Shown here piece by piece: positions 49,567 through 63,466 of a stretch of 64,000 nucleotides of DNA; within the stretch, counting starts at the first letter, position 1; every line of letters begins with the position of its first letter. The notes under the pieces are model-generated. The model ran no database searches and was not told the DNA's origin. It saw only the letters and a list, made by a program, of their open reading frames with translations. This stretch comes from an uncultured Gammaproteobacteria bacterium (lineage in GTDB: Bacteria > Patescibacteriota > Patescibacteriia > UBA1558 > GWA2-36-10): NCBI GenBank assembly GCA_964638415.1, contig CAZWYP010000001.1, forward strand, positions 148,650 through 212,649, read 5' to 3'. The translations under genes were made by a program, and so were the position numbers.

Positions 49567-49570
49567 ATAA

Positions 49571-49600
49571 GATACCCTATAGTTTTATAGGGTATTTTTT
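49571..49600 (+). terminator. Intrinsic terminator GATACCCTATAGTTTTATAGGGTATTTTTT
   Basis: Palindrome plus T-run. Confidence 0.8.
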
Positions 49601-49623: not shown

Positions 49624-50616
49624 ATGAATAATAATAACGAGCAAACAGCCTATTTGACTAATAAGTCAAAAACACACAAGTTAATTATATTTTTTTTGCT
49701 ATTAACCAATATTTTTACTGGGGGATGGTTTTTTATTTACCAAAAAGATCATCTAATAAACCCAAAAGAATACCCGTACATAGATGTTACTAGAAGTTTA
49801 ATTCCCCAGGAGCATTTTGTGGTTAATTTGGAGCCGCTTAGAGAAAGCTTAGATCAATTAGTTAAAGATTTTGGCGAAGATTCAGTGTCCATTTATATAG
49901 AATTTTTAAATACTGGAGCTAATATTTCAATTAATAAAGATAATTATATTTGGCCAGCTAGTTTAACTAAACTTCCGGTAGCTATGGCGACAATGAAAAA
50001 GATTGAGAAAGGGGAATGGGAATTTAATAATGAACTGGTTTTAACAAGAGAAGATGTAAATCAATTTTCCGGGGATGCTAAGGATCCCTTATCTGAATAT
50101 CCGGTGGGCAGCAGATTTACTATTCGCAAACTTTTGGAGGAATTATTAATAAATTCTGATAATACTGCTTATTATATTTTACTTCGCAATATTCATGAAG
50201 ATGAGCTGAAAGAAGTAATTTTAAATATCGGAATTGAAACATTATTTTCTCCTTCCGGCCAGATTTCATCCAAAGAATATTCCAGAATCTTTAGGGCTTT
50301 ATACACTTCCAGTTTTTTAAAGAGAGAAAACTCCCAGTATTTATTGGAAATATTAGATCAATCTGTCTTTGATGAATTTTTATCTGGCGCTGTGGCAAAA
50401 GAAATTCCTTTTCCCCATAAATATGGGCAAGATGACAAGAACAAGGCTTATTCTGATTCGGGTATAGTATATTTGCCATACCGACCTTATATAATTACGG
50501 TGATGGTACAGGGCGATCAGAATGAATCTTTTGAAAGTGAAAAAACCAAGGCGGCAGATTTTATGAATAAAGTTTCTCAGATTACTTACGAATATTTTTC
50601 TCTACAGACTAAATAA
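49624..50616 (+). CDS. Class-A beta-lactamase-like serine hydrolase, membrane-anchored
   Basis: SxxK (ASLTK), SDN (NSDNTAY), K(T/Y)G (HKYGQD) motifs; N-terminal TM. Confidence 0.65.
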   Translation: MNNNNEQTAYLTNKSKTHKLIIFFLLLTNIFTGGWFFIYQKDHLINPKEYPYIDVTRSLIPQEHFVVNLEPLRESLDQLVKDFGEDSVSIYIEFLNTGANISINKDNYIWPASLTKLPVAMATMKKIEKGEWEFNNELVLTREDVNQFSGDAKDPLSEYPVGSRFTIRKLLEELLINSDNTAYYILLRNIHEDELKEVILNIGIETLFSPSGQISSKEYSRIFRALYTSSFLKRENSQYLLEILDQSVFDEFLSGAVAKEIPFPHKYGQDDKNKAYSDSGIVYLPYRPYIITVMVQGDQNESFESEKTKAADFMNKVSQITYEYFSLQTK

Positions 50617-50618
50617 TT

Positions 50619-53600
50619 ATGTCGAAGAAGATAAAAAATATTATTAGGATATTTTCAATTACTTTTGTTTCTTTTATTTTTTTATTGACTAATGTTTTTA
50701 GCGGGCTAACCAGCTGGTTTTACGAGTATCTTAAAAACAGCAATATAGTAGATATATTATGGCAGGCTCAGCACAGTAAATCCGTAGTGGATAATTTCTT
50801 AAAGGATAACTTAACCGTAAGGCAGACTTCTGCAGCAGAAATAACAATTGAATCGGATACTACTGATGCTACTTTTGAGTACGGCACTTCTCCAGCGGTA
50901 GTCTTTACTACTGATCAGATTGGCTATGTTTTTTTTGTTGACGCTGGCAATGATCTGGTCTACAGAAAAACTACTAATGGGGGTACTAATTGGGCAGCAC
51001 CGACGATCATAGACAATGTAGTGACTGGCTGGGTTTCAGTTGCTGTTTGGTATGACCAATGGACTCCCGGAGATAGTAGTAATACCAAGATTCATATTGC
51101 TGCTTCCGATAATGCTTCTGACGATATTTTTTATACTTACTTGGACACTAACGGAGATAATCTAAAGGGTAGCGTGGTAACGGCAGTGTCGGGCTCAGCC
51201 ACTTTAACTGCTGGCGCTGACGGCCCACCCAGCATTACCAAAGGCGCTGGTGGAGCATTATTTGTATCAGGTAATTTCACCAGCACTGCCGGAGGCAAGG
51301 TTTCTAAGTCAACGGACGGCGCTGGAGATAGTTGGTCCGATGTCACTCCTTCCGGCTGGAGTTCAGTAGCAATTGACCAGATCCAATTATTACCTCTTTT
51401 AACTGGAGATGACATCATAGCGATTAAAGCAGAAACTGCTAATAATGCCATAAAATACCAAATTTACGATGAAACCAATGATCAATGGCCAGCCTCCTGG
51501 AGTAATATTGCTACACTAACCGAAAACACCACCTATGATCAATGGTTTTCCGCTACCATCAAGAAATCCACTGGCGATGTTTATCTGACTTTTGCTAATC
51601 AGACAGCCAATGCTGCTAATGATATTGAATTCTGGAGCTTTGATGAAAGTAATAGGGGTAGTGGCTTTGTGAAAGGCACTAACAATGTTTATGATAACAG
51701 CAATTTGATTATTTCCCCAGTGCCCTTAACAGATGAAAATACTGGAGATATTTATGTGGCGTATATCAGTGGAAGAATTCAAGGAACGATAGGTGCGGTA
51801 ACTCATGTGTTTTATAAAAAATCTACTGACGGCGGCAATACCTGGAGTAATGAATACGGTAATATCAATAACGATGTTGGTGATGACTACCGTTATTTGA
51901 GAGGCAATTTATTAAGTAGTGATCGCTTGTTTATTATTTATCACGATGATGATGACAATGATATACTTGGTACTACGATTGAGTCTCAGGATACTACCGT
52001 TGAAGCCAATGTAGATACTGCCATTATTGATGCTACGGATGAATATGGGCCATCACCATCAGGGGTGTTCACTACGGAAGATGTTGGTTATAAATTTTTT
52101 GTAAAAACCAATACTGTTTTGGATGGCACTGATGAATTTGGCCCATCACCGTCAGTGGTTTTTACAGATGCTAATACTGGCTATGCTTTTTTTGTTAGCG
52201 CTGTTAATCAGGATTTAGTTTACGCCAAGACGATTAATGGCGGAGCCAATTGGAGCGGACAAGTGATAATTGATTCAGCAGTTGGTGGCTGGACAATGGC
52301 TTCTGTCTGGTACGATCAGTGGACGCCGGGGGATACTACTGGAACCAAGATTCACATTGCTGCTTCTGATGATGTGTCTGATGACATTTACTATACTTAT
52401 CTGGATACTAATGGTGATACTTTGAAGGGTAGCGTGGTAACGGCGGTTTCAGGGTCAACTACTTTAACGGAAGCAAGCGACGGTCCACCCAGCATTACCA
52501 AAGGCGCTGGTGGGGCATTATTTGTATCAGGCAATTTCACCAGCACTGCTGGAGGCAAAGTTTCTAAGTCAACGGACGGTGCTGGAGATAGTTGGTCCGA
52601 TGTCACTCCTTCGGGCTGGAGCTCAGTAGCAATTGACCAAATACAACTACTGCCGTTGTTAACTGGAAATGATATTATGGCGATTAAAGCCCAGACGGCA
52701 GATAACACTATTAGATACCAAATTTACGACGAAACTAATGATCAATGGCCAGCCTCCTGGACTAATATTGCCACTTTAACTGAGAACCTTACCTATTACC
52801 AATGGTTTTCTGCTACCATCAAGAAATCCACTGGTGATGTTTATCTGACTTTTGCCAATCAGACAGCTAATGCTGCTAATGATATTGAATTCTGGAGCTT
52901 TGATGAAAGTAATAGGGGCAGTGGTTTTGTTCAAGGTGCTAATATATTTACTGATAATGCCACCGTTATTTCCCCAGTCCCTATCATAGAAGAAGATACG
53001 GGTAATATTTATGTAGCTTATATCAGAGGCACGTTAAATGCTACCGTGAGGGTTTATTATAAAAGCTCAACTGACGGCGGAGCTAATTGGGGCAGTGAGT
53101 CGTCCAGTGTTAGTCCGACTACTGCTGATGATCATAAGTACTTAAGAGGAAATATTCTTAACAATGATACTTTATATGTCGTTTGGTACAATGACGATAC
53201 TAATATCCTAAGGGGGAACTCTCTTTTGTCACCAATCGCTACTGATGTGCCTTTGACCGGTCAGTCCATAGCTTTTAGAAAGACTACCACCGGCGGGGCT
53301 GCTTGGGGGACTTTGCGTATTTTAGCACCAGGTTTAGGCGCCACCATGGTTTCTGTCTGGTATGATCGATGGACGCCTGGGGACACCACTGGAACCAAGA
53401 TCCATGTTGTTTATTCTGATGATGTGACTGATGATTATTATTATACTTATTTAGATACCAATGGCGATGAGATTGGCTTTAATAAACCAGTAATTTTAGG
53501 ATCAGCTATTACTGAGTTGGGTGTCGGTACGCCAGGTATTACCAAAGGCGCTGGGGGAGCTTTATTTTTATCTGGTCAATTTAATACTACTGCCGGAGGC

Positions 53601-54686
53601 AAAGTATATAAGTCGGTCAATGGTGGAGACACCTGGTCCGATGTTACTCCTTCCGGTTGGAGCTCAGTAGCAATTGACCAGATCCAATTATTACCGCTTT
53701 TAACTGGAGATGACATTATGGCTATCAAAGCCCAGACAGCAGATGATACTATTAGATACCAAATTTACGATGAAACCAATGATCAATGGCCTGATTCTTG
53801 GACTAGTATTGCTACACTAACCGAAAACACTACCTATGACCAATGGTTTTCCGCTACCATCAAGAAATCCACTGGCGATGTTTATCTGACTTTTGCTAAT
53901 CAGACGGCCAATGCTGCTAATGATATTGAATTCTGGAGCTTTGATGAAAGTAATAGGGGCAGTGGCTTTGTGAAGGGCACCAATAATGTTTATGATAATA
54001 GCAACGTTATTCTTTCCCCCATAACTTTAATTGATGAAAATAATGGTAATTTATATGTGGCTTATTTACGAGGCACTCTGGAAAATAATATGGGGGTGTA
54101 TTACAAGACTTCCACTGACGGCGGGGACACCTGGAGCGCAGAATCAGCTAATTTAGGTCCAGGCTTGGTTGATGATCATAAGTATCTACACAGCACCTTA
54201 TTGAGCGGAGATAGGCTTTATATATTTTGGTATAACGATGATTTAGAGGATATTATGGGTAATACCATTCCATTTTTGGTGGCAGCGGAAATATCAATTA
54301 CTTTATCTACCGATGGTTCCATTTCTTTTGGCGGACTCTCTTTAGAAGCAGTTGAAGACACTACTGCTGGAGGAATTAATGATGTGGAAACGATTAATGT
54401 GGATTCAGGCCCAGTTGATTTGGATATTAGAAGTACAACGTGGTCTGAAGGGGCTAATATTTGGACCCTAGGCAATGATAGTGCGGATAATCAGGTATTA
54501 TGGGAATTCTCTCCCAATGGCAGCTCTTGGTCAACTTTTCTAGTGGCTGATAATTTATATAATTTGGCAACCAATGTTTCTCAAGGTAATAGTCAGAATG
54601 TCTATTTCCGTCTTAGTATGCCCACGATTACTGACTCTTATCAGGAATACAGCGCTGATGTTACTATAGTAGCCTCTAGTCCCTAA
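50619..54686 (+). CDS. Giant cell-surface protein (1355 aa) with an N-terminal TM anchor, three tandem ~420-aa modules carrying Asp-box/BNR motifs (SxDxGxTW), and a distinct C-terminal domain
   Basis: Asp-box motifs KSTDGGNTWS, SSTDGGANWG, TSTDGGDTWS, TTNGGTNWA, TINGGANWS, SVNGGDTWS; near-identical nucleotide repeats. Confidence 0.75.
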   Translation: MSKKIKNIIRIFSITFVSFIFLLTNVFSGLTSWFYEYLKNSNIVDILWQAQHSKSVVDNFLKDNLTVRQTSAAEITIESDTTDATFEYGTSPAVVFTTDQIGYVFFVDAGNDLVYRKTTNGGTNWAAPTIIDNVVTGWVSVAVWYDQWTPGDSSNTKIHIAASDNASDDIFYTYLDTNGDNLKGSVVTAVSGSATLTAGADGPPSITKGAGGALFVSGNFTSTAGGKVSKSTDGAGDSWSDVTPSGWSSVAIDQIQLLPLLTGDDIIAIKAETANNAIKYQIYDETNDQWPASWSNIATLTENTTYDQWFSATIKKSTGDVYLTFANQTANAANDIEFWSFDESNRGSGFVKGTNNVYDNSNLIISPVPLTDENTGDIYVAYISGRIQGTIGAVTHVFYKKSTDGGNTWSNEYGNINNDVGDDYRYLRGNLLSSDRLFIIYHDDDDNDILGTTIESQDTTVEANVDTAIIDATDEYGPSPSGVFTTEDVGYKFFVKTNTVLDGTDEFGPSPSVVFTDANTGYAFFVSAVNQDLVYAKTINGGANWSGQVIIDSAVGGWTMASVWYDQWTPGDTTGTKIHIAASDDVSDDIYYTYLDTNGDTLKGSVVTAVSGSTTLTEASDGPPSITKGAGGALFVSGNFTSTAGGKVSKSTDGAGDSWSDVTPSGWSSVAIDQIQLLPLLTGNDIMAIKAQTADNTIRYQIYDETNDQWPASWTNIATLTENLTYYQWFSATIKKSTGDVYLTFANQTANAANDIEFWSFDESNRGSGFVQGANIFTDNATVISPVPIIEEDTGNIYVAYIRGTLNATVRVYYKSSTDGGANWGSESSSVSPTTADDHKYLRGNILNNDTLYVVWYNDDTNILRGNSLLSPIATDVPLTGQSIAFRKTTTGGAAWGTLRILAPGLGATMVSVWYDRWTPGDTTGTKIHVVYSDDVTDDYYYTYLDTNGDEIGFNKPVILGSAITELGVGTPGITKGAGGALFLSGQFNTTAGGKVYKSVNGGDTWSDVTPSGWSSVAIDQIQLLPLLTGDDIMAIKAQTADDTIRYQIYDETNDQWPDSWTSIATLTENTTYDQWFSATIKKSTGDVYLTFANQTANAANDIEFWSFDESNRGSGFVKGTNNVYDNSNVILSPITLIDENNGNLYVAYLRGTLENNMGVYYKTSTDGGDTWSAESANLGPGLVDDHKYLHSTLLSGDRLYIFWYNDDLEDIMGNTIPFLVAAEISITLSTDGSISFGGLSLEAVEDTTAGGINDVETINVDSGPVDLDIRSTTWSEGANIWTLGNDSADNQVLWEFSPNGSSWSTFLVADNLYNLATNVSQGNSQNVYFRLSMPTITDSYQEYSADVTIVASSP
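51167..54010 (+). repeat. Three tandem intragenic repeats; core ~530-nt segments (about 51170-51700, 52430-52960, 53470-54000) are near-identical; period ~1260 and ~1040 nt
   Basis: Landmarks ATTACCAAAGGCGCTGG (51235/52494/53540) and TTCTGGAGCTTTGATGAAAGTAATAGGGG (51631/52891/53929). Confidence 0.85.
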
Positions 54687-54763
54687 GTAATTTTATTTAT
54701 GGGTCTTGTTTATGTGGCAAGTTGTGTTATAATATAAGCATTAAAAATAAACATAATAAAAAT

Positions 54764-55270
54764 ATGAAACAAAGTATTATAAGTATTTCTTTTGTAATCT
54801 TAGTCGGGTTATTTATCACCCTAGTTTCCCAAGCTGCAGATAATGCTACGGTAACCGCTACGGTAACTGCGCAGAATATAGCAATATCAGTAGCTGATGG
54901 ATCAATAACTTATGGCACTATAGCCTTAGGTGGGGCAGCTTCAACAACAGCTGACAGCATTAATGACAGTCAGACCGTTACTAATGACGGTAATATCACC
55001 TCCGATCTTGATATCCGGGGACAGAATACCGCTGCTTGGACTTTGGCGGGAAGTTCTGGAGCTGATCAGTATATTCACCAGTTTTGTGGAGAAGCTAATT
55101 GTGATTCCGCACCAGTTTGGACAGCTTTAACCACTAGTTACCAGGCTTTGGCTACTAGTATTGCCGCTGCCGGCACCAAGGTTTTTGATTTAAAGATTAC
55201 TTTACCTGCCTCTAGTAGCAGTTATACTCAGCAGTCCGTAGATGTTACTGTCTTAGCTTCCGCTTCTTAA
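54764..55270 (+). CDS. Secreted protein paralogous to the C-terminal domain of the giant protein
   Basis: Shared pattern IS..DGSI..G...L....TTA..IND..T...D....DLDIR...WTL...S.ADQ... and C-terminal SVDVTVLASAS versus SADVTIVASSP; extended -10 TGTTATAAT at 54725-54733. Confidence 0.6.
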   Translation: MKQSIISISFVILVGLFITLVSQAADNATVTATVTAQNIAISVADGSITYGTIALGGAASTTADSINDSQTVTNDGNITSDLDIRGQNTAAWTLAGSSGADQYIHQFCGEANCDSAPVWTALTTSYQALATSIAAAGTKVFDLKITLPASSSSYTQQSVDVTVLASAS

Positions 55271-55286
55271 AATTTTTACGATATTA

Positions 55287-55889
55287 ATGAAAAAAAGATT
55301 TACTTATTTTCTTATTGCTGTTTTTCTATTGATTCCAGGTTTATCGCTGGCTAAAATGGGAGTAGGTGTTGGTACCGGCAAAATCGTTATGGATCAGGAA
55401 TTAAAAGCTGGCACCTACCATAATTTGCCGGCTTTAACGGTGATTAATACCGGAGATGAGCCAGCGGATTATGGAGTTTCAGTATCTCATCGTGAGAATC
55501 AGCCAGAACTAAAACCTAATGCTGAGTGGTTTACTTTTTCTCCTAATAGTTTTCATCTTGATCCGGGGCAAGCTCAGAGAGTAGAAATCAAGGTAAATTT
55601 ACCAATAAAAATACAGCCCGGCGATTATTTCGCATTTTTGGAAGCACATCTTAATAATAGCAATCAAGACGCTTCCAAAACCAGCATTGGCATCGCCGCT
55701 GCTAGCAAGCTTTATTTTACAGTAGCCCCTTCCAATTTTATTCAGGGCATATATTATCGGATAATTTCATTTATATTCTATTATCGCCCTTGGACATACA
55801 TAGTCCCGATTGTAATATTTTTGGCTATTTTGATTACAATTTTCAGGAAAAAGTTTGTTTTTAATATTAGCATTGGTAAAAAACAATAG
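55287..55889 (+). CDS. Hypothetical surface protein (N-terminal signal, C-terminal TM anchor)
   Basis: ORF and hydropathy. Confidence 0.5.
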   Translation: MKKRFTYFLIAVFLLIPGLSLAKMGVGVGTGKIVMDQELKAGTYHNLPALTVINTGDEPADYGVSVSHRENQPELKPNAEWFTFSPNSFHLDPGQAQRVEIKVNLPIKIQPGDYFAFLEAHLNNSNQDASKTSIGIAAASKLYFTVAPSNFIQGIYYRIISFIFYYRPWTYIVPIVIFLAILITIFRKKFVFNISIGKKQ

Positions 55890-55894
55890 TTTTA

Positions 55895-56941
55895 ATGATT
55901 GTTTCCAAAGCCAAAATTTTTCTTTTCCTATTCCCTCTATTGTTAGTGGGAATATTTTTTGTAGCTAAGTTTGTTATTGCTCAATCTTACAATATTGATG
56001 CTCAGGTTAGAATCAGTGTTTGTGGTAACGGTGACGCTGAAGGTGGTGAAGAATGTGATGGAGCTGATTTTAATGGCTTAAGCTGCTCTAACTTTGGTTT
56101 TAGCTCTGGTAATTTAACTTGTGATATCGCTTGTGATATTGATGCCAGTGATTGCCGGAACACTACTGGCGGAGGAGGCGGTGGCGGAGGAGGCGGTGGT
56201 GGCGGCGGGGGAATTCCCCCGGTGCAGACTAGTGTTACTTTTTCCGGCCGGGCTTATCCGCAAAGCGAAGTCACTATTTTAAAAGACGGCCAGATTGCCA
56301 TAACTACTATTGCCGGCCCAGACGCTAATTTTTATGTATCATTAACTGGCTTGGCGGCGGGTAATTATAATTTTGCTGTTTATAGTGAAGACAGTGATAA
56401 TCGCCGCTCAACTCTTTTTACTTTCCCTGTATATATTACTGCTGGCGCTACCACCAATATTAGCGGTATTTATATCGCCCCTACCATTGCCGTAGATAAA
56501 AGTCAGGTTAGGCGCGGGGATAACATAGCTATTTTCGGCCAAACTGTGCCTAGTGCTAATGTGACTATTTCAGTTCATTCCAACCCAGAATATTTCCGTT
56601 ACATTATTGCTGACGAAGATGGTGTTTATTTGCATAATTTTGATACTTCAATTTTGGCTCAAGGCGGCCATAATACAAAATCTAAATCCGCAATAACTGG
56701 AGAAATCAGCTCTTTTGGTCAAACAGTAGGTTTTACCGTGGGTGAAGACAATGTGCCGGCAGAGGAAACAAATGATTTGCCAGCAGATGTTAATAATGAT
56801 AATAAGGTTAATTTAATTGATTTTTCCGTGGCCGCTTACTGGTATGGCCGGGCAAATCCTCCGGCTAATGTCGATCTTAATAAGGATGGCAAAGTGAATT
56901 TAGTTGATTTTAGTATCATGGCTTATCATTGGACTGGTTAA
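55895..56941 (+). CDS. Membrane-anchored protein with a Cys-rich module, a 29-residue poly-Gly linker, Ig-like region and a C-terminal type-I dockerin (two Ca-binding repeats)
   Basis: DVNNDNKVNLIDFSVAAYW and DLNKDGKVNLVDFSIMAYHW fit the D-x-N-x-D-x-x-x-N-x-x-D dockerin consensus exactly. Confidence 0.75.
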   Translation: MIVSKAKIFLFLFPLLLVGIFFVAKFVIAQSYNIDAQVRISVCGNGDAEGGEECDGADFNGLSCSNFGFSSGNLTCDIACDIDASDCRNTTGGGGGGGGGGGGGGGIPPVQTSVTFSGRAYPQSEVTILKDGQIAITTIAGPDANFYVSLTGLAAGNYNFAVYSEDSDNRRSTLFTFPVYITAGATTNISGIYIAPTIAVDKSQVRRGDNIAIFGQTVPSANVTISVHSNPEYFRYIIADEDGVYLHNFDTSILAQGGHNTKSKSAITGEISSFGQTVGFTVGEDNVPAEETNDLPADVNNDNKVNLIDFSVAAYWYGRANPPANVDLNKDGKVNLVDFSIMAYHWTG

Positions 56942-56944
56942 GAT

Positions 56945-57823
56945 ATGCGCAGGTATATATTTTTTATTTTATTAGGATTATTATTTTTTCCCTTCCGTCA
57001 GCTGCAAGCTGCCGAATTGTCGATTATTAACAATTACCAGGCCATAAATATTGGTCAGGAGTTTGAAGTTGTTGTTTATCTTAATACTGAAAATGAAAAA
57101 ATTAATGCTTTATCTGGAAAAATTATTTTTCCTGAACAATATCTGGAGTTAGTCAGAATAAAGAATAATGATTCAGTTATTAATTTTTGGATTGAAATGC
57201 CAAGCTTAAGCCAGCCGGGAGAGGTGTCTTTCTCGGGCATTATTCCTGGAGGATTGGAAGATAATCGTAGTAAAATATTTTCTTTGATTTTCCGAGCTAA
57301 ATCTGCCGGCAGTGAACAGGTGTCTATTTCAGATTTTTCTGCTCTACTTAATGATGGTCAAGGCACAGCGGTTAATACTAAAACTGTTTCTGCTTTATTT
57401 AATATCTCCGATGAAGTCATAGTTTATCAGCCAGGCATAGAGGAGGTGGCTGATTTTGATCTGCCGGAATCATTCAATCCTTTACTTACCCAGATCCCAG
57501 AAATTGCCGATAATAAATATCTTTTAGTCTTTTTGACCCAGGACAAAGGTTCTGGTATTAGCCACTATGAGGTAAAAGAAGGCTGGGGAAGCTTTAAGGT
57601 TGCCACTAGTCCTTATGTTTTAGAGAATCAGAAGTTAAATCAGAAGATTTTTGTCAAAGCTATTGACCAAGCTGGTAATGCCAGAGTGGTTACTTTTATT
57701 CCACCCAATTACCTTCCCTGGTATAAAAATTACCAATTATTTGGTATAATAATACTAGTAATTATCTTTGCTTATTTTTCTCAGCGTTATTCCCACAAAA
57801 ACAAAAAAACAACAAAAACATAA
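56945..57823 (+). CDS. Cohesin-like domain protein 1 (signal, cohesin-like N-domain, shared SGI(S/D)HYE(V/I) domain, C-terminal TM)
   Basis: N-domain pattern (IG..FEV.VYL......INALSGK.IFP...LELV...; ...FRAK..G...VS.......NDGQGT) typical of cohesin beta-sandwiches; paralog of the next gene. Confidence 0.55.
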   Translation: MRRYIFFILLGLLFFPFRQLQAAELSIINNYQAINIGQEFEVVVYLNTENEKINALSGKIIFPEQYLELVRIKNNDSVINFWIEMPSLSQPGEVSFSGIIPGGLEDNRSKIFSLIFRAKSAGSEQVSISDFSALLNDGQGTAVNTKTVSALFNISDEVIVYQPGIEEVADFDLPESFNPLLTQIPEIADNKYLLVFLTQDKGSGISHYEVKEGWGSFKVATSPYVLENQKLNQKIFVKAIDQAGNARVVTFIPPNYLPWYKNYQLFGIIILVIIFAYFSQRYSHKNKKTTKT

Positions 57824-59560
57824 ATGAAAAGATTTTTCGGCAAAGCAATAAGTGTATTTTTATTAGTTGGTGTTTTTTTATTTAACCAAGTCTTATTGGC
57901 TCAGGCCGCTACTATTTTTCCATCTCCTAATTCCGGTAGTTATAATATTGGCAAGTCATTCTCGGTTGGTGTTTTTGTTTCCAGCGCCGATCAGGCTATT
58001 AATGCCGTATCGGGAACTTTATCTTTCCCCAAAGATAAATTAGAAGTCACTTCTGTTTCCAAATCTGGTTCAGTTGTTTCTTTGTGGGTGCAGGATCCTT
58101 CTTTCTCCAATAGCGCCGGCACAGTAAGTTTTGAAGGTATTGTGCTTAATCCCGGTTTTACTGGCGCTAGCGGTAGGATTATAACGGTAAATTTCCGCGC
58201 TAAGAATGGCGGTGCTGCGCCGATTACTTTCTCCGCCGGTTCGGTACTGGCTAATGACGGGCAGGGTACTAATATTTTATCTGGCTTAGGCAGTGCTAGA
58301 TATGATATTGAAGTGCCGGTTTCCGGGCCAGCGGCGCCGGAAGCTGAAACCCCCTCAGCGATTATTGGCACACCGCCGGCTCCTTTGGTTTCTTCCCAAA
58401 CCCATGAAGATCCTGATCGCTGGTATAATAATAATCAGCCGCAATTCAGCTGGTCTTTGCCGGAAGGCATAACCGCCGTTAAATTATTGGCAGATAATAA
58501 GCCGCAAAGCGATCCGTCTGTAGTTTATGCCCAGCCGATTAGTTCCCGCAACCTTGATCAGCTGGAAGATGGTATTTGGTATTTCCATATTCAGTTGCAG
58601 AATAGCGTAGGCTGGGGAGGCATTGCCCATTTCCGTTTCCAGATTGATACCAAGAATCCAGAATATTTCAATATTTCGGAAGTAGCCCGCCAAGACTTAA
58701 CTGAGCCATTTGCCAAGTTTATCTTTGAGGCAGCTGATGAAGTTTCCGGTATTGACCATTATGAGATTCAGATTGATAACAATGAAGCTATTGTCTGGCA
58801 GGATGATGGCACTGGTATTTACCAGACGCCAGTTTTAGCGCCAGGCAAGCACCGGATGATGGTTAAGGTCTTTGACGGCGCCGGTAATAGCATTGCCAAT
58901 TTTGCGGAGTTTGAAATTACCGCTTTAACTTTGCCGACTATTAATAATTTCACCAAGGATTTAACCAGCAGCGAGCGCTTCCGGGCTACCGGCAGCTCTT
59001 ATCCTAATGCTCAGGTAATTTTTGAGCTTAATAAATCAGGTGAAGAAACCGTGACGCTTACCGCTAATACAGATGAGCAGGGTAATTTTGATTTAATCAG
59101 TGAAGACCCATTGGTTGACGGCAAGTATAAGTTGAGAGTGAAAGTGGTGGATAGCAGGGGAGCGCAGAGTTTCTGGACAGAGGATTTTGAGGTTAGGGTT
59201 CAGAAACCGGCATTATGGCGCTTCGGCTCGGTTGCCATCAGCGTTTTGTCAGTGATCATCCCGTTGTTTGCTCTAATTACCTTACTAGCATTTATGCTTT
59301 GGTATAGCTGGCATAAGTTCCGCTCTTTCCGCCGTCGGGTAAGCCGAGAAGTCAGCGAAGCAGAAGTGGTTTTACAGAATGCCTTTGCTAATTTAAAAGT
59401 TAGCGTAGCCAACAGGGTAAAGATGTTGGAAAAAACTGGTCAGAAAAGAGATTTAACACCAGAAGAGGCCAGAATGGTTATGCAGCTTCGCAAGGACTTG
59501 GATCGGGCAGAAAGCATTGTCGCCAAGGAAATTAGGGATATTCAGAAAGAAGTAAAGTAG
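57824..59560 (+). CDS. Cohesin-like domain protein 2 (signal, cohesin-like N-domain, Pro-rich linker, Ig-like domains, TM, cytoplasmic coiled-coil tail)
   Basis: N-domain homologous to the preceding gene (INAVSGTLSFPKDKLEV...FRAKNGGAAPITF...ANDGQGT). Confidence 0.55.
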   Translation: MKRFFGKAISVFLLVGVFLFNQVLLAQAATIFPSPNSGSYNIGKSFSVGVFVSSADQAINAVSGTLSFPKDKLEVTSVSKSGSVVSLWVQDPSFSNSAGTVSFEGIVLNPGFTGASGRIITVNFRAKNGGAAPITFSAGSVLANDGQGTNILSGLGSARYDIEVPVSGPAAPEAETPSAIIGTPPAPLVSSQTHEDPDRWYNNNQPQFSWSLPEGITAVKLLADNKPQSDPSVVYAQPISSRNLDQLEDGIWYFHIQLQNSVGWGGIAHFRFQIDTKNPEYFNISEVARQDLTEPFAKFIFEAADEVSGIDHYEIQIDNNEAIVWQDDGTGIYQTPVLAPGKHRMMVKVFDGAGNSIANFAEFEITALTLPTINNFTKDLTSSERFRATGSSYPNAQVIFELNKSGEETVTLTANTDEQGNFDLISEDPLVDGKYKLRVKVVDSRGAQSFWTEDFEVRVQKPALWRFGSVAISVLSVIIPLFALITLLAFMLWYSWHKFRSFRRRVSREVSEAEVVLQNAFANLKVSVANRVKMLEKTGQKRDLTPEEARMVMQLRKDLDRAESIVAKEIRDIQKEVK

Positions 59561-60121: not shown

Positions 60122-60739
60122 TTGATGCTTGTCTCGCGCTATTCTTTTAAATTTTTGTCGCGGGCGGAAGTAAGGAATATCCGCCAGTCTTTGTATCCCG
60201 CTAAAGCCGATACAGCTAATGCTTCAGCAGCAGTAAGAGATGAGAGCAAGCGTTCTTTTCTCAAGCTAGCCGGTTTAGTTGGCTTGGGAGTATTTACCTC
60301 TTCTTTAATACCCAAAAAAGCCAAGGCTTTAGTTTTTGGCTCCACGCCTGCTTCCAATGTGGTAGGCGTCAAGAATGAGAGCGATGTCAGAATTAATCCG
60401 GCTACGGAGGAAACTCTCGGCTCGTTATTAACTGGTCAGGAAGTCAATAAATTGTCTACCAGTTTGTCTTCTTCAGGCAATGTGTTAGTGCCGGCTTCTG
60501 GCAAGAAAATTAGAGTGTATAGCACTCGTTTTTCTTTAACCGCTGATCTTACTTCAGTTTCTTTCCGCTTTACTTCCGGCGGCACTGACCACGAAAAATA
60601 TGTCAGTCCTAAAACTGGGGGCCTGTATGGCGCTAATAACCACCCTAATTTCGTAGAAGGCGGCATTGATGAAGCTTTATATTGCGTTATTTCCGGCACC
60701 GGCACTGTGCAAATTAATATTGATTATTTAGAAATATAA
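60122..60739 (+). CDS. Hypothetical exported protein with a KR-type twin-arginine-like signal (SKRSFLKLAGLVGLGVF...AKA)
   Basis: Matches the S/T-R-R-x-F-L-K consensus with a K-R variant, an h-region and AxA; directly downstream of tatA. Confidence 0.5.
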   Translation: MMLVSRYSFKFLSRAEVRNIRQSLYPAKADTANASAAVRDESKRSFLKLAGLVGLGVFTSSLIPKKAKALVFGSTPASNVVGVKNESDVRINPATEETLGSLLTGQEVNKLSTSLSSSGNVLVPASGKKIRVYSTRFSLTADLTSVSFRFTSGGTDHEKYVSPKTGGLYGANNHPNFVEGGIDEALYCVISGTGTVQINIDYLEI

Positions 60740-60751
60740 TAAAAAAATACT

Positions 60752-62899
60752 ATGGCCAAAAGAGTAGTTGAACATGTTTTCACCGGTGCAACAGTTTCTT
60801 ATACCGCTTATGATTCCACTAAAACAGTTCTAGGTGAAATGATCCAGCAGCAGACTGGCGCTAATCCCAAAGATAAATATGCCGGACCAATGCCCATTGG
60901 TTTAGCTAGGCCAATGGAAGCTGGTACTGCGATCTCCAGTGCCTATCCTCACGCCATTACTTTCAGTGATGATTTGATTTGGGTATTTTTGGCGGAAATC
61001 AGTACGGCGGCAGCAACTAGAAAAATTAGTGCTTATTCTTTCACTAAATCTACTAATGTTTTTGATTGGTTAGGTTATATTACCTTGACTTTCCCTCCTA
61101 ACACAGCTCATACCGTTCGTGGATTTCGTGTGAGTCGCGAACTTTATACCACCGGTACAGCATCAGCTAGCGGCACGGCTGTAACGGGAACTGGCACCGC
61201 TTGGTCAGCGAGTTTATTAGCAGCAGGCTGTCGGATAGGATTTGGATCAGCTGATCCTACCCAAATTACCACTTGGTACGAAATTTCCTCCATTGGAGGT
61301 GACACCTCTATTACTTTAACGGCCACAGCTGGCACAGTGGTTGATGGCCCCTATGTTATTGAAGATTTGCGAGCAGTAGTTTCAACAACTAATGCCACTT
61401 TAACTAATGGTGGTTTATTTGTAGCAAAGGGTTTAAGAATTGAAAACTTTAATAGCTCTGGAACAACCATTCCGGCCGCTACCACTACTGACAATATCCG
61501 AGCGGTTTATTGGCTGGCTGACGCTGCCACAGTTACCAATACCATTGCTTGCGGTTGCGCCATTGATGATAAAGTCTCTTGGACCGAGCAATACGTTTAT
61601 ATTATTGATGGTACTACTACGACTTGCCGGGTTTACAAATATAATATTAGAGCATCGCTTACCTCTTTATCTTCAGGTAAAAGTACAGCCGCTTGGTCTT
61701 TGACTACGGGAGCGCAAACTCCAACCGGCACGGTGTCCCAAGCTAATAATGGAAGAATTGGTGCTTTGAATCATAATCCAGATGCCGGCACTAAATTTTT
61801 ATATTTTGTTTCAACCACGCGTGTTCTCAGGGCTTTAGTCAGCGGTTTGACTAGTGGTAATACTTCTTGGCAGACTGACACAATGATGGAAGTCCCGCCT
61901 GGCGGATCCTCGACTTTTACGGTCAGCGGCGCCCTGTCTTCTTGCGAAATTTCCAGCATTATCGATCGTTTGGTGATTGTCAGCACTGGTGCAGCTAGCC
62001 AGCGCGGTTATGTGACTAAATTTTATACCGATGGTTCCAATTTTGATCACATTTTCTTAGTTGATGATAAACAGCTGGATCAGAGCTCAGCTGACAGCGG
62101 CGGAGTCACGCACCCGGGAATTTCGACCTCAGCTTTTTCTATTTGGTCAGAGCAAGGCATATTGTTTCTTTGTCGAGGCACTACTTCCGCTACTTCCAAT
62201 CAGTTATACAGTATGCCACTCGGTGCTCATTGGACTTATGCCGGTAATGCCGTAAAACAGCGTTTGATTACTCCGGTCTTAGCTTTGCCAGACATCTCGT
62301 CCTTCGGTAGAATTTTTGTTAATGCCGCTGTGCAATTAGGCAGCGGCACGATGGGTTTACCACCGGAGCCTTATCGTGTTTATTATCGGACCGAAGGTAT
62401 TGATGATGATAGTGGTGATTGGACGCTAATTTCTCAGCACGCGACTGCCGGTGATACTATGGATTTAAGCTCGGTTAGCGCGACTTCGCAAATTCAATTA
62501 ATGTTTGAATTTAAAACAATTGGAGGATATTGTATTCCCGCCAGAATTTACAGTTGTGGAGTAATTTATGAAGATAACACTACAGATTCTCATTATCAAC
62601 CATCAGTTGGTCAATCATCAATAACCAATAAATATTTTGCCTGGAGATTTTCCACCGCTTTTGGTTCTACAGTGCCGACCCTAACCATTAAATTATATGA
62701 TGCTGTTACTGCAGGTTTATTATTAACCGATGATACTGCCAGCCAAGCTAATGGAACTTTTGAAAAGAGTACTGATGGTGGGCAAAGTTGGGGAGCTTAT
62801 AATACCACCGACAAAGCTAATGAAACAACCTATATCCGTTATACGCCCAGTTCTTTGGCTGACAATATTAAAGTTAGAGCTTTACTAACTAGAGTTTAA
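60752..62899 (+). CDS. Large hypothetical Thr/Gly/Ser-rich beta-rich protein (715 aa), no N-terminal signal, GC-rich
   Basis: ORF only. Confidence 0.5.
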   Translation: MAKRVVEHVFTGATVSYTAYDSTKTVLGEMIQQQTGANPKDKYAGPMPIGLARPMEAGTAISSAYPHAITFSDDLIWVFLAEISTAAATRKISAYSFTKSTNVFDWLGYITLTFPPNTAHTVRGFRVSRELYTTGTASASGTAVTGTGTAWSASLLAAGCRIGFGSADPTQITTWYEISSIGGDTSITLTATAGTVVDGPYVIEDLRAVVSTTNATLTNGGLFVAKGLRIENFNSSGTTIPAATTTDNIRAVYWLADAATVTNTIACGCAIDDKVSWTEQYVYIIDGTTTTCRVYKYNIRASLTSLSSGKSTAAWSLTTGAQTPTGTVSQANNGRIGALNHNPDAGTKFLYFVSTTRVLRALVSGLTSGNTSWQTDTMMEVPPGGSSTFTVSGALSSCEISSIIDRLVIVSTGAASQRGYVTKFYTDGSNFDHIFLVDDKQLDQSSADSGGVTHPGISTSAFSIWSEQGILFLCRGTTSATSNQLYSMPLGAHWTYAGNAVKQRLITPVLALPDISSFGRIFVNAAVQLGSGTMGLPPEPYRVYYRTEGIDDDSGDWTLISQHATAGDTMDLSSVSATSQIQLMFEFKTIGGYCIPARIYSCGVIYEDNTTDSHYQPSVGQSSITNKYFAWRFSTAFGSTVPTLTIKLYDAVTAGLLLTDDTASQANGTFEKSTDGGQSWGAYNTTDKANETTYIRYTPSSLADNIKVRALLTRV

Positions 62900-62908
62900 A
62901 TTAAATTT

Positions 62909-63466
62909 ATGGTTCACATTGATCAACATCAAGCTGTGCCCGAACGGGAAGATCTAAAGGTTTTTAGCCCGACTGGGGATTATCAGGATAACGATTTAAT
63001 TGATTGTTATAAAATAACTGATCCCAGTTTTCCAATCTGTTCATTCCAGGCCCAATTTATTAAGTACGGTTCCTTAGTTTACAAATTTAATTCAGAGGAT
63101 TTATTAGCTGAGGAAATTATGAAAATTGACCCAGAGTCAATTCACGATTCGGTAGTTTTTTATAAAGAGGATAAGCAGAGGAAAAAGATGAGAGAAGAGG
63201 GTAAATTAAAACCTGAAAAACCGGATAGCCCAGTTGTGCCGGAACCGTTACCGCCAGTCCAAGAGGAGGAAATAATTCCTACTCCTATTCCTGAACCAAC
63301 ACCAGAAATAATCCCAGAAAAACCAGTTGTAATACCTAATGAAGAAGTAGTTCCTACTCCACCTTCAATCACCCCGGAGGCTACTCCTGATGTTATAGAT
63401 TATGGGTCAGATATTCCCAGTGTTGAGGATCGGAAGAAACTTTATAAGTATTTACCAAAAGAATAA
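62909..63466 (+). CDS. Hypothetical protein with a Pro-rich C-terminal half (PEP(L/T)P.. repeats)
   Basis: ORF only. Confidence 0.5.
   Translation: MVHIDQHQAVPEREDLKVFSPTGDYQDNDLIDCYKITDPSFPICSFQAQFIKYGSLVYKFNSEDLLAEEIMKIDPESIHDSVVFYKEDKQRKKMREEGKLKPEKPDSPVVPEPLPPVQEEEIIPTPIPEPTPEIIPEKPVVIPNEEVVPTPPSITPEATPDVIDYGSDIPSVEDRKKLYKYLPKE

Follow-up and report, generated by a model that had tools for sequence, protein, structure and literature searches.

A conserved three-gene locus in CPR bacteria

Within a 64-kb window (the whole stretch of DNA that was analysed), the list of open reading frames places three tightly packed genes of an ultra-small CPR/Patescibacteria bacterium, here named A, B and C, at positions 55895-59560, all on the + strand, as are all features described below. 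Gene A (55895-56941) encodes a predicted secreted, dockerin-bearing protein of 348 aa with Pfam matches to Dockerin_1 and Big_6. Gene B (56945-57823) encodes a short membrane-anchored cohesin protein of 292 aa and gene C (57824-59560) a long one of 578 aa. The ATG of B starts 3 nt downstream of the A stop codon and that of C lies immediately 3' of the B stop codon; with the preceding gene up2 included, the stop-to-start spacing is 0-5 nt along up2-A-B-C. As a side observation, one reading frame is common to A, B and C.

Database searches returned 2146 homologues of A, 236 of B and 1305 of C. Relatives of C at E<=1e-30 formed 3422 clusters at 50% identity, and at least 525 genomes carry C relatives. 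The colinear A-B-C order was present in 64 of 66 species-level CPR loci, which came from many CPR classes. Given these homologue numbers and the conserved gene order, chance can be excluded. As an operon, the trio is deeply conserved throughout CPR, occurs in hundreds of CPR species and is not peculiar to the source genome. The three genes put forward in the original prediction from the bare sequence were confirmed at the stated coordinates. Natural B-C fusions retain a topology with both cohesins outside, and such occasional read-through fusions are the only cases of two cohesins on one protein.

Gene A combines a variable head with a constant stem and dockerin

By hydropathy, protein A starts with a signal peptide (aa 1-30, 55895-55984). 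This N-terminus is hydrophobic, has a signal-peptidase-like site between VIA and QS, and forms a helix at residues 3-27 in the AlphaFold model; an A-x-A-like site also recurs in the alignment of A homologues. These features suggest that the peptide is cleaved, or the hydrophobic segment could serve as an uncleaved anchor. Hydropathy gave no anchor in A apart from the signal peptide. The following head is a 6-Cys module (aa 38-90, 56006-56164) with cysteines at residues 43, 54, 64, 76, 80 and 87, all six invariant in the homologue alignment, which agrees with the Cys-rich module that had been predicted. It occurs in only 32 of 70 A homologues, the other lineages carrying different heads. A search for a known Cys repeat in this head gave no Pfam or NCBIfam match at E<=1. 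The head is joined to the rest of the protein by a poly-Gly hinge of 15 residues (aa 92-106, 56168-56212), and not by a linker of 29 Gly as first proposed; the run is written with mixed Gly codons, and a run of at least five Gly is present in 58 of 68 A homologues regardless of head type. The stem consists of two Ig-like domains (aa 113-285, 56231-56749), with a Pfam Big_6 match at residues 114-178 and beta strands, of low confidence, in the AlphaFold model. A is thus modular: the head varies with lineage, while the poly-Gly hinge, the Ig-Ig stem and the dockerin are constant.

The dockerin itself (aa 297-348, 56783-56938) comprises two Ca-loop/helix repeats, DVNNDNKVNLID-FSVAAYWY and DLNKDGKVNLVD-FSIMAYHW. 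The claim that two canonical Ca-binding repeats end the protein was upheld, as both quoted segments are present and Dockerin_1 (PF00404) matches residues 297-342 with 30.4 bits (E 4.5e-7), above the Pfam cut-off of 22.9. Dockerins have two tandem EF-hand-like Ca2+ loops of ~22 residues (D or N at positions 1, 3, 5 and 12), each followed by a helix. This PF00404 repeat pattern is seen in A as D298, N300, D302 and D309 and as D327, N329, D331 and D338, all invariant or nearly so, and the D-x-N-x-D...D loops with the helices after them are near-invariant in 69 species. The Dockerin_1 cut-off was also passed by five of seven divergent A homologues, and a profile of the A family matched solved dockerins over both repeats (e.g. 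2y3n_B, E 3e-4). The AlphaFold model of A was built on a shallow alignment of 21 sequences (mean pLDDT 56) and showed no helices at residues 289-348 (pLDDT ~40); since the dockerin was left unfolded there, its assignment is a sequence-based one.

Genes B and C encode cohesin-like domains on membrane-anchored stalks

In both B and C a signal peptide is followed by a beta domain of ~135 aa, located at aa 23-158 in B (57011-57418) and at aa 28-165 in C (57905-58318). Pfam Cohesin (PF00963) scored 22.9 bits for C and 18.0 bits for B (E 0.0036, profile positions 7-131 of 139), which is under the cut-off of 24.1 in both cases, although the matches are near-full-length (114-125 of 139 profile positions). 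Cohesin matches at E<=0.01 were obtained for 10 of 24 C homologues and 3 of 26 B homologues, and some database homologues of B and C carry a precomputed PF00963 match or the NCBI name 'cohesin domain-containing protein'. Because the sub-threshold Pfam scores come with near-full coverage and with cohesin-annotated homologues, we filed these N-terminal domains as a divergent cohesin-fold subfamily. They have the nine-stranded beta-sandwich (jelly-roll) of ~140 residues that defines the cohesin fold, and the B and C domains are clear paralogues (hhalign probability 99.9, E 6e-35). The prediction of cohesin-like domains was supported for the fold. Searches of the cohesin sequence profiles against the PDB gave no significant match to solved cohesins, and global hhalign against the CipA cohesins was unsuccessful. 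Dockerin is bound on the 8-3-6-5 sheet of cohesins. In a weak, local hhalign alignment (E 0.065) the conserved motifs INA..G and LxNDG of B and C fell on strands 3 and 8 of the second CipA cohesin, reportedly its dockerin-binding face (1OHZ), and from this alignment the INA..G/LxNDG surface is a possible binding face of the B and C cohesins.

The cohesin of B is followed by one Ig-like domain (aa 185-252, 57497-57700; NCBIfam OmpL47-type domain, E 1.4e-4), which has a conserved DKGSGI-HYE motif in common with the second Ig domain of C, and then by a TM anchor (aa ~262-283, 57728-57793; hydropathy segment 265-283) and a short basic tail with positive residues. In C the stalk has three Ig-like domains (aa 187-461, 58382-59206; Big_13, E 2.6e-13), modelled with pLDDT around 90 and giving multi-Ig matches in Foldseek. 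The TM helix of C (aa 463-496, 59210-59311) is seen by hydropathy and as a helix in the model, RRR follows it, and the cytoplasmic helical tail of ~80 residues (aa 497-578, 59312-59557) contains a conserved motif, LT-EE...KEI-DI-KEV. Two helices were modelled in this part of the protein, at 463-541 and 546-577. The predicted TM anchors of both proteins and the predicted cytoplasmic tail of C were thus recovered.

One dockerin and two cohesins, without enzymes

Cohesins and dockerins are hallmark modules of cellulosomes. For OD1, Kantor et al. (2013) saw a 'cellulosome-related gene cluster' as pointing to the degradation of complex carbon (PMC3812714). Together with the sialidase-like BNR motifs of a giant protein encoded upstream, this would fit a small cellulosome-like system for polysaccharide degradation. 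However, Pfam and NCBIfam gave no glycoside hydrolase, carbohydrate-binding or other catalytic domain in A, B or C, and no catalytic or carbohydrate-binding domain was found in seven divergent A homologues either. Moreover, a scaffoldin carries several cohesins, and here B and C have one each; only a single protein has a dockerin, and the giant lacks one. We consider a degradative system extremely improbable, and the term 'non-cellulosomal' in the original prediction was supported along with its structural reading. Neither the window nor 1.1 Mb of related loci contained a further dockerin carrier, and in both the ratio is one dockerin to two cohesins; further dockerin proteins may be encoded outside the 64 kb of this genome that were seen.

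The folds could also be real while A, B and C bind other partners, the dockerin being a Ca2+-stabilised module and the co-location of the genes reflecting co-regulation only. The sub-threshold cohesin scores and the unfolded dockerin of the AlphaFold model agree with this. Yet the three genes are strictly co-inherited at a 1:2 ratio, the A dockerin and the C cohesin are conserved together, A would have nothing beyond its signal peptide to hold it to the cell, and neither the window nor the 1.1 Mb of related loci encodes another partner for the dockerin or the cohesins. Such independence of the three proteins therefore seems very unlikely to us.

Lineage-variable genes upstream of the operon

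Three genes precede A (50619-55889): a BNR giant (50619-54686) with six Asp-box motifs and three internal repeats, up1 (54764-55270), a small W-x-L protein, and up2 (55287-55889), a protein with Ig and TM parts. This module, in one form or another, stands before A-B-C in about 50 of 70 loci. Gram-positive WxL/Csc clusters resemble it in having a large and a small protein that share a C-terminal W-x-L domain, together with an Ig-like protein whose C-terminus has a TM segment; we know of no such cluster with cohesin or dockerin genes. By this analogy, A-B-C might anchor, as its base, a larger complex at the wall that includes the giant and the two small proteins, and in which the cargo would be the giant and not the A head. 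Several observations point this way. In most loci a large variable secreted protein and one or two small proteins are encoded 5' of A on the same strand; 5 nt separate up2 from A; the C-terminus of the giant is homologous to up1, with W-x-L invariant; and among 18 up2-type proteins three matched WxLIP_PGBD (the WxL-interacting-protein models are PF06030 and PF11797). The best of these matches (E 1.6e-4, 22.1 bits) lies under the cut-off of 27.3, however, and Pfam WxL (PF13731) had no match at E<=1 in 14 up1-type sequences; in these scores the upstream genes depart from the Gram-positive clusters. In addition, the upstream genes differ by lineage whereas A-B-C is constant, and because the window search gave no dockerin or cohesin in the giant, up1 or up2, their mode of attachment to A-B-C is not evident. 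We regard this larger complex as possible but unlikely. The giant had originally been described as adjacent and linked: it is nearby, but two small genes intervene and the link holds only in some lineages.

Conservation of the domains and a model for A-B-C

Over 68 loci, mean identity was 66% for the A dockerin, 60% for both the C cohesin and A Ig1, and 56% for A Ig2, which makes the dockerin, Ig1 and the C cohesin the best-conserved parts of the trio. The B cohesin is far less conserved (35%), and the Ig2-dockerin linker of A is variable (26%). Since identity of the stem and socket is so high (about 60-66% across classes), the sequences argue for a generic base and not for a host-specific adhesin. 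Pairwise distances of the C cohesin correlated with those of the A domains at rho 0.42-0.57 and with those of the C Ig domains at 0.18-0.41. Both shared phylogeny and the lower noise of conserved domains confound these values.

We considered whether the trio is a housekeeping machine for envelope or trans-membrane coupling, acting in wall or S-layer organisation, in division-site or cytoskeletal coupling, or in signalling via the C helices. For surface proteins, the sequences are very highly conserved across CPR classes, nearly every sampled locus has the operon, the cytoplasmic tail of C is conserved, and in this locus as in about 9 others the first gene of the operon is beta-lactamase-like (PF13354). 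The head of A, its outermost module, is on the other hand lineage-variable, which fits an environment-facing ligand binder; Pfam and NCBIfam showed no known wall-binding, enzymatic or signalling domain, and matches of the C tail to ATP synthase b and ArlX were not significant. On balance we find a housekeeping role unlikely.

Our preferred reading, which we think reasonably probable, is that A-B-C is a minimal tethering device, built on cohesin and dockerin and free of enzymes, which belongs to the standard CPR/Patescibacteria envelope and displays its variable head from a conserved base in the membrane. The dockerin evidence, the co-inheritance of the genes, the 1:2 ratio, the conservation pattern of the domains, the topology of the B-C fusions, the modular head and the possible binding face all support it. 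B and C would be type-I membrane proteins, with the signal peptide cleaved off and a TM helix at the C-terminus, holding their cohesins at the outer tip of an Ig stalk (one Ig in B, three in C). A would be secreted without an anchor of its own, and its invariant dockerin, with two Ca2+ loops, would plug into a cohesin. The likeliest partner is the cohesin of C, because it is the best conserved and co-varies in rate with A; that of B may bind too, or alternately. Docking would fix the Ig-Ig stem of A to the cell, and the stem would present the lineage-specific head, here a 6-Cys knot, via the flexible poly-Gly hinge. The head is the presumed ligand-binding part, for which the candidate ligands are the host surface, a substrate and the wall of the cell itself, and the cytoplasmic helices of C might serve either to oligomerise the base or to link it with a partner in the cytoplasm.

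A bolder version, which we regard as quite unlikely, is a heterotrimeric, CPR-wide 'socket' in which the symmetric A dockerin clamps the B and C cohesins simultaneously, one per face, and the stalk couples the head to the cytoplasmic coiled coil of C, forming a hitherto unrecognised host-contact or host-sensing organelle of most Patescibacteria. If true, this would be the first cohesin-dockerin pair to act as core cell machinery and not as an enzyme scaffold.

Discussion

A large part of bacterial diversity belongs to the CPR/Patescibacteria, the majority of which are believed to live in attachment to other cells. To our knowledge, surface build and host attachment are almost unknown in this radiation outside Saccharibacteria. 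With its presence in hundreds of species, a conserved membrane socket, a swappable head and no enzymes, the tethering device proposed here is a candidate generic platform for surface display or attachment. It would take cohesin-dockerin biology beyond enzyme scaffolding, to an envelope structure that is conserved and connected to the cytoplasm, and the exposed conserved cohesin and dockerin could be handles to label, capture or enrich uncultured CPR cells. Literature searches on cohesins and dockerins in CPR, Patescibacteria, Parcubacteria and OD1/OP11 gave only the passing mention in PMC3812714; the colinearity, the per-domain conservation, the variable head and the single dockerin without a catalytic domain are new here. 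Two other links were rejected. SEML1_0315, an essential dockerin protein of Southlakia (PMC10633639), has 927 aa and is encoded by a gene that stands alone and not in an A-B-C trio, and is not an orthologue; as to phage mimicry, no A relative was found in viral contigs.

Single-cohesin anchors (OlpA and OlpC of C. thermocellum, ScaE of R. flavefaciens) are similar to the proposed device in that a surface cohesin directly captures a dockerin protein. ScaE binds the X-dockerin of the adhesin CttA, so that a non-enzymatic binding protein is tethered. Unlike these anchors, B and C are fixed by a TM helix, to which C adds a conserved cytoplasmic tail, and use neither SLH repeats nor a sortase signal; one dockerin protein is accompanied by two paralogous cohesin proteins, with neither enzymes nor a scaffoldin, and the three genes form a fixed operon across a whole bacterial radiation. 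The glycosidase and toxin complexes of C. perfringens and the cohesin of Archaeoglobus fulgidus likewise place cohesins and dockerins outside cellulose degradation, but there the modules are on secreted enzymes or one soluble protein, whereas in this trio each cohesin has a dedicated stalk in the membrane and the dockerin belongs to a non-enzymatic protein of head and stem. Finally, A resembles the type II/III X-module-dockerin dyads (CipA XDoc, 2b59_B), which have an Ig-like module directly before the dockerin. In further likeness to them, the A Ig domains match the dockerin in conservation and co-vary with the C cohesin. The match of the A-family profile to 2b59_B across the Ig-dockerin junction was weak and not significant (E 0.14), and the variable linker between Ig2 and the dockerin sets A apart.

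A three-gene operon read in a single frame

Three + strand genes, packed end to end at 55895-59560, encode a dockerin protein (A) and two cohesin proteins (B and C). The ATG of A lies 5 nt past the stop of the preceding gene, that of B 3 nt past the stop of A, and that of C immediately past the stop of B. All three share one reading frame, separated by single stop codons and 0-3 nt, and the loss of one stop would therefore yield an in-frame fusion. In a profile search of homologues, natural read-through B-C fusions were found in several independent clusters; examples of 866-901 aa are L017 6871-9471 (a related locus; the same protein as record P0065), P0118, P0369, P0376 and P0384. The fusions keep the transmembrane (TM) helix of B, which is followed by the signal peptide of C as a second TM, so that both cohesins would remain outside.

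By its sequence, protein A ends in a dockerin

Protein A (348 aa) begins with a signal-peptide-like segment, with predicted cleavage between VIA and QS, and then has six Cys that all fall within residues 43-87, a poly-Gly run, an Ig-like match to Pfam Big_6, and Dockerin_1. The original prediction of a dockerin at the end of A was borne out at the sequence level, since the Pfam match exceeded its threshold (30.4 bits against 22.9, E 4.5e-7) and every canonical Ca2+-ligand position was retained in the alignments. A profile of 21 A homologues matched solved cellulosomal dockerins over both repeats (2y3n_B, E 3e-4; also 5nrm_B, 1daq_A and 2mte_A). The segment hardly varies across 69 species and has the consensus D-x-N-x-D-x-[RK]-V-N-L-[VI]-D-F-S-I-A-A-Y-W-Y-K-R for repeat 1 and D-L-N-G-D-G-K-V-D-L-V-D-F-S-I-M-A-[YF]-Y-W-T-G for repeat 2, the latter forming the C-terminus of A; the two halves are nearly symmetric to each other. 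An AlphaFold model of A from the 21-sequence alignment was poor (mean pLDDT 56) and left this segment unfolded. Judged by its sequence, the C-terminal module of A is a dockerin. In some species, A homologues have Cys at alignment positions 294, 301 and 303 (numbered as in the window), inside the first Ca2+ loop of the dockerin or shortly ahead of it; an example is DLNCDxRVN with a Cys ~8 residues upstream. These Cys suggest an optional disulfide clasp.

The poly-Gly run, put at 29 residues in the original prediction, actually comprises 15 (residues 92-106). Its Gly codons are mixed in the window, which points to selection on the peptide and not to DNA slippage, and 58 of 68 A proteins have a Gly run of at least 5 between head and stem. 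The N-terminal head differs among related loci: the six-Cys module is found in 32 of 70 A proteins, and the Magasanikbacteria-like ones (430-500 aa) have other heads, for which a Pfam search gave no match. Big_6 and Dockerin_1 are kept in all A proteins.

Proteins B and C carry divergent cohesins on membrane anchors

Both B (292 aa) and C (578 aa) start with a signal peptide and a ~135-residue beta domain. B ends in a C-terminal TM helix; C continues with a Big_13 Ig-like match, a TM helix and a tail of ~80 residues, basic and then helical. The predicted anchoring of both proteins, and the helical nature of the C tail, agree with what had been proposed. The near-full-length Pfam Cohesin matches of B (18.0 bits) and C (22.9 bits) fell below the threshold of 24.1. 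Modelling of C from 24 homologues (mean pLDDT 81.8; domains 85-94) did produce the expected cohesin-like beta sandwich (29-163), followed by a Pro/Ala linker modelled as disordered, by three Ig-like domains (189-460), and by a TM helix that continues as a long helix with a second helix after it. Its structural matches include dockerin-complexed cohesins (4uyp_A, 2vn5_A, 1ohz_A, 4dh2_C, 3ul4_A) and non-cellulosomal ones from C. perfringens (2vo8_A, 2w1n_A) and A. fulgidus (2xdh_A). On profile comparison, the N-domain of B is an unmistakable paralogue of the C cohesin (hhalign probability 99.9, E 6e-35, 35% identity). Sequence-only profiles of the B and C cohesins gave no significant match to solved cohesins. 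We conclude that these N-domains are a divergent cohesin subfamily.

The motifs conserved in B and C could be aligned weakly and locally to CipA cohesin 2: INA..G coincides with strand 3 ('IANCDF'), and L-x-N-D-G with the last part of strand 8 ('FADND'). The sheet with these strands is reported to be the dockerin-binding face in 1OHZ; a location of the conserved motifs there may serve as a lead only. Positions 91-132 of the cohesin profile, in its C-terminal half, gave a non-significant match (E 0.06) to 9rwu_A, a 'pilus assembly protein' whose structure was solved recently and which may hold a cohesin-like domain.

The operon is conserved as a unit

Relatives of the three proteins are numerous, with more than 2146 homologues of A, 236 of B and more than 1305 word-indexed homologues of C, the last of the same length and ~50% identity. 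With E<=1e-30 as the limit, an exhaustive profile search with C gave 3422 clusters at 50% identity, some of them unrelated giant Ig-repeat proteins. At least 525 genomes have a C relative (pattern scan, one genome per species). Named records are from Parcubacteria/Paceibacterota (Wolfe-, Colwell-, Jorgensen-, Portnoy-, Sung-, Vogel-, Campbell-, Brenner- and Wildermuthbacteria), Magasanik-, Uhr- and Komeilibacteria, and Doudna-, Dojka- and Microgenomates-type records; names of C homologues added Falkowbacteria. NCBI calls some members 'cohesin domain-containing protein' or 'dockerin type I repeat-containing protein'. Of 66 loci that extend far enough upstream, 64 have A, B and C in this order on a single strand.

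Dockerins were carried by A proteins only (70 of 70) and cohesins by B or C proteins only (162 ORFs) in the window (64 kb) and in related loci totalling ~1.1 Mb. A mini-cellulosome for carbohydrate degradation would share the cohesin and dockerin folds, but A, B and C have no catalytic or carbohydrate-binding module and that DNA holds no further dockerins, and we consider this explanation highly improbable.

Among the domains of 68 species-level operons, mean pairwise identity was highest for the A dockerin (66%), A Ig1 and the C cohesin (both 60%) and A Ig2 (56%), followed by B Ig and C Ig1 (both 46%), the C tail (38%), C Ig2 and Ig3 (36-37%) and the B cohesin (35%). C-cohesin distances correlated with those of A Ig1, Ig2 and dockerin (Spearman 0.57, 0.51 and 0.42), and less so with those of C's own Ig domains (0.18-0.41). 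These values, confounded by phylogeny and noise, fit the idea that A and the C cohesin may evolve as a unit. That the folds are real and A, B and C nevertheless do not bind one another seems to us decidedly unlikely.

Surrounding genes

A hairpin with a 13-bp stem (49569-49598) lies ahead of a four-gene upstream block, within which terminator-like matches were short only (5-10 bp stem) and below background. The block, on the + strand, starts with a beta-lactamase-like gene (49624-50616; PF13354, E 1.4e-35, class A) directly before a gene for a giant protein of 1355 aa (50619-54686) with six Asp-box/BNR motifs and three internal repeats (offsets 420 and 347 aa). Two small genes follow before A: up1, for a secreted protein of 168 aa, and up2, for an Ig-like protein of 200 aa that has a TM at its C-terminus. 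A is likewise preceded in most related loci by a large variable secreted protein and one or two small proteins, all of lineage-dependent type.

The last ~140 residues of the giant are homologous to mature up1, with W-x-L invariant, and 3 of 18 up2-type proteins had a sub-threshold match to the peptidoglycan-binding domain of WxL-interacting proteins; the Pfam WxL model found no match in up1-type sequences. The giant, up1 and up2 resemble, and might be a CPR counterpart of, Gram-positive WxL/Csc clusters. A-B-C could then be the base for the giant in a WxL-like wall complex, and nothing in the giant, up1 or up2 accounts for attachment to A-B-C. We hold this reading, which is compatible with tethering of A, to be a minority possibility.

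A beta-lactamase-like homologue also lies upstream of A-B-C in ~9 other loci (e.g. L002, L019, L039, L064, L077), and a tie to the cell wall is possible. In several species, small genes inserted immediately ahead of A, or separating A from B, encode four-helix-bundle/23S rRNA intervening-sequence (bAvd-like) or GxxExxY proteins (L004 7640-7987, L025, L041, L048, L056, L074; P0283, P0321, P0270, P0278), sometimes fused to B in databases; they may be mobile. Three + strand ORFs downstream (60122-63466; 205, 715 and 185 aa, the last Pro/Glu-rich) had no significant Pfam/NCBIfam match, and none recurred in other loci. Two near-duplicate antisense ORFs of ~100 aa within the giant (- strand, 51137-51451 and 52397-52708) simply reflect the repeats within it and are unlikely to be genes.

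A proposed tethering device and its relation to known systems

We think it somewhat probable that A-B-C is a tethering device. Domain identities, topology signals and the conservation of the operon are shown by the analysis; the cleavage, the binding, the choice of cohesin and the ligand of the head are inferred. B and C would be type-I membrane stalks of unequal height, each with a cohesin at its tip. A would be exported without an anchor and retained at the cell through docking of its dockerin in a cohesin, most probably that of C. The conserved Ig-Ig stem of A would then present, on the poly-Gly hinge, a lineage-specific head that may bind a ligand, and the conserved cytoplasmic helices of C would oligomerise the base or link it to an internal partner. 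That the same assembly has instead a housekeeping or coupling role appears unlikely.

In the literature on CPR cohesins and dockerins we found no analysis of the A-B-C operon, its conservation or its architecture; Kantor et al. (2013; PMC3812714) mention in passing a "cellulosome-related" cluster in OD1, which they take to indicate breakdown of complex carbon. An essential dockerin protein of Southlakia (PMC10633639) was rejected as the same system, being a 927-aa stand-alone gene.

The tethering device would work in the manner of OlpA, OlpC and ScaE, cellulosomal anchoring proteins with a single cohesin each, and resembles the cohesin-dockerin pairs that C. perfringens and A. fulgidus have outside cellulosomes, both groups being among the best structural matches. 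Unlike these systems, it is anchored by a TM helix to which a cytoplasmic tail is attached, has two paralogous cohesin proteins to one dockerin protein, would carry a non-enzymatic head-stem protein as its cargo, and is encoded by a three-gene operon that is fixed across a bacterial radiation.
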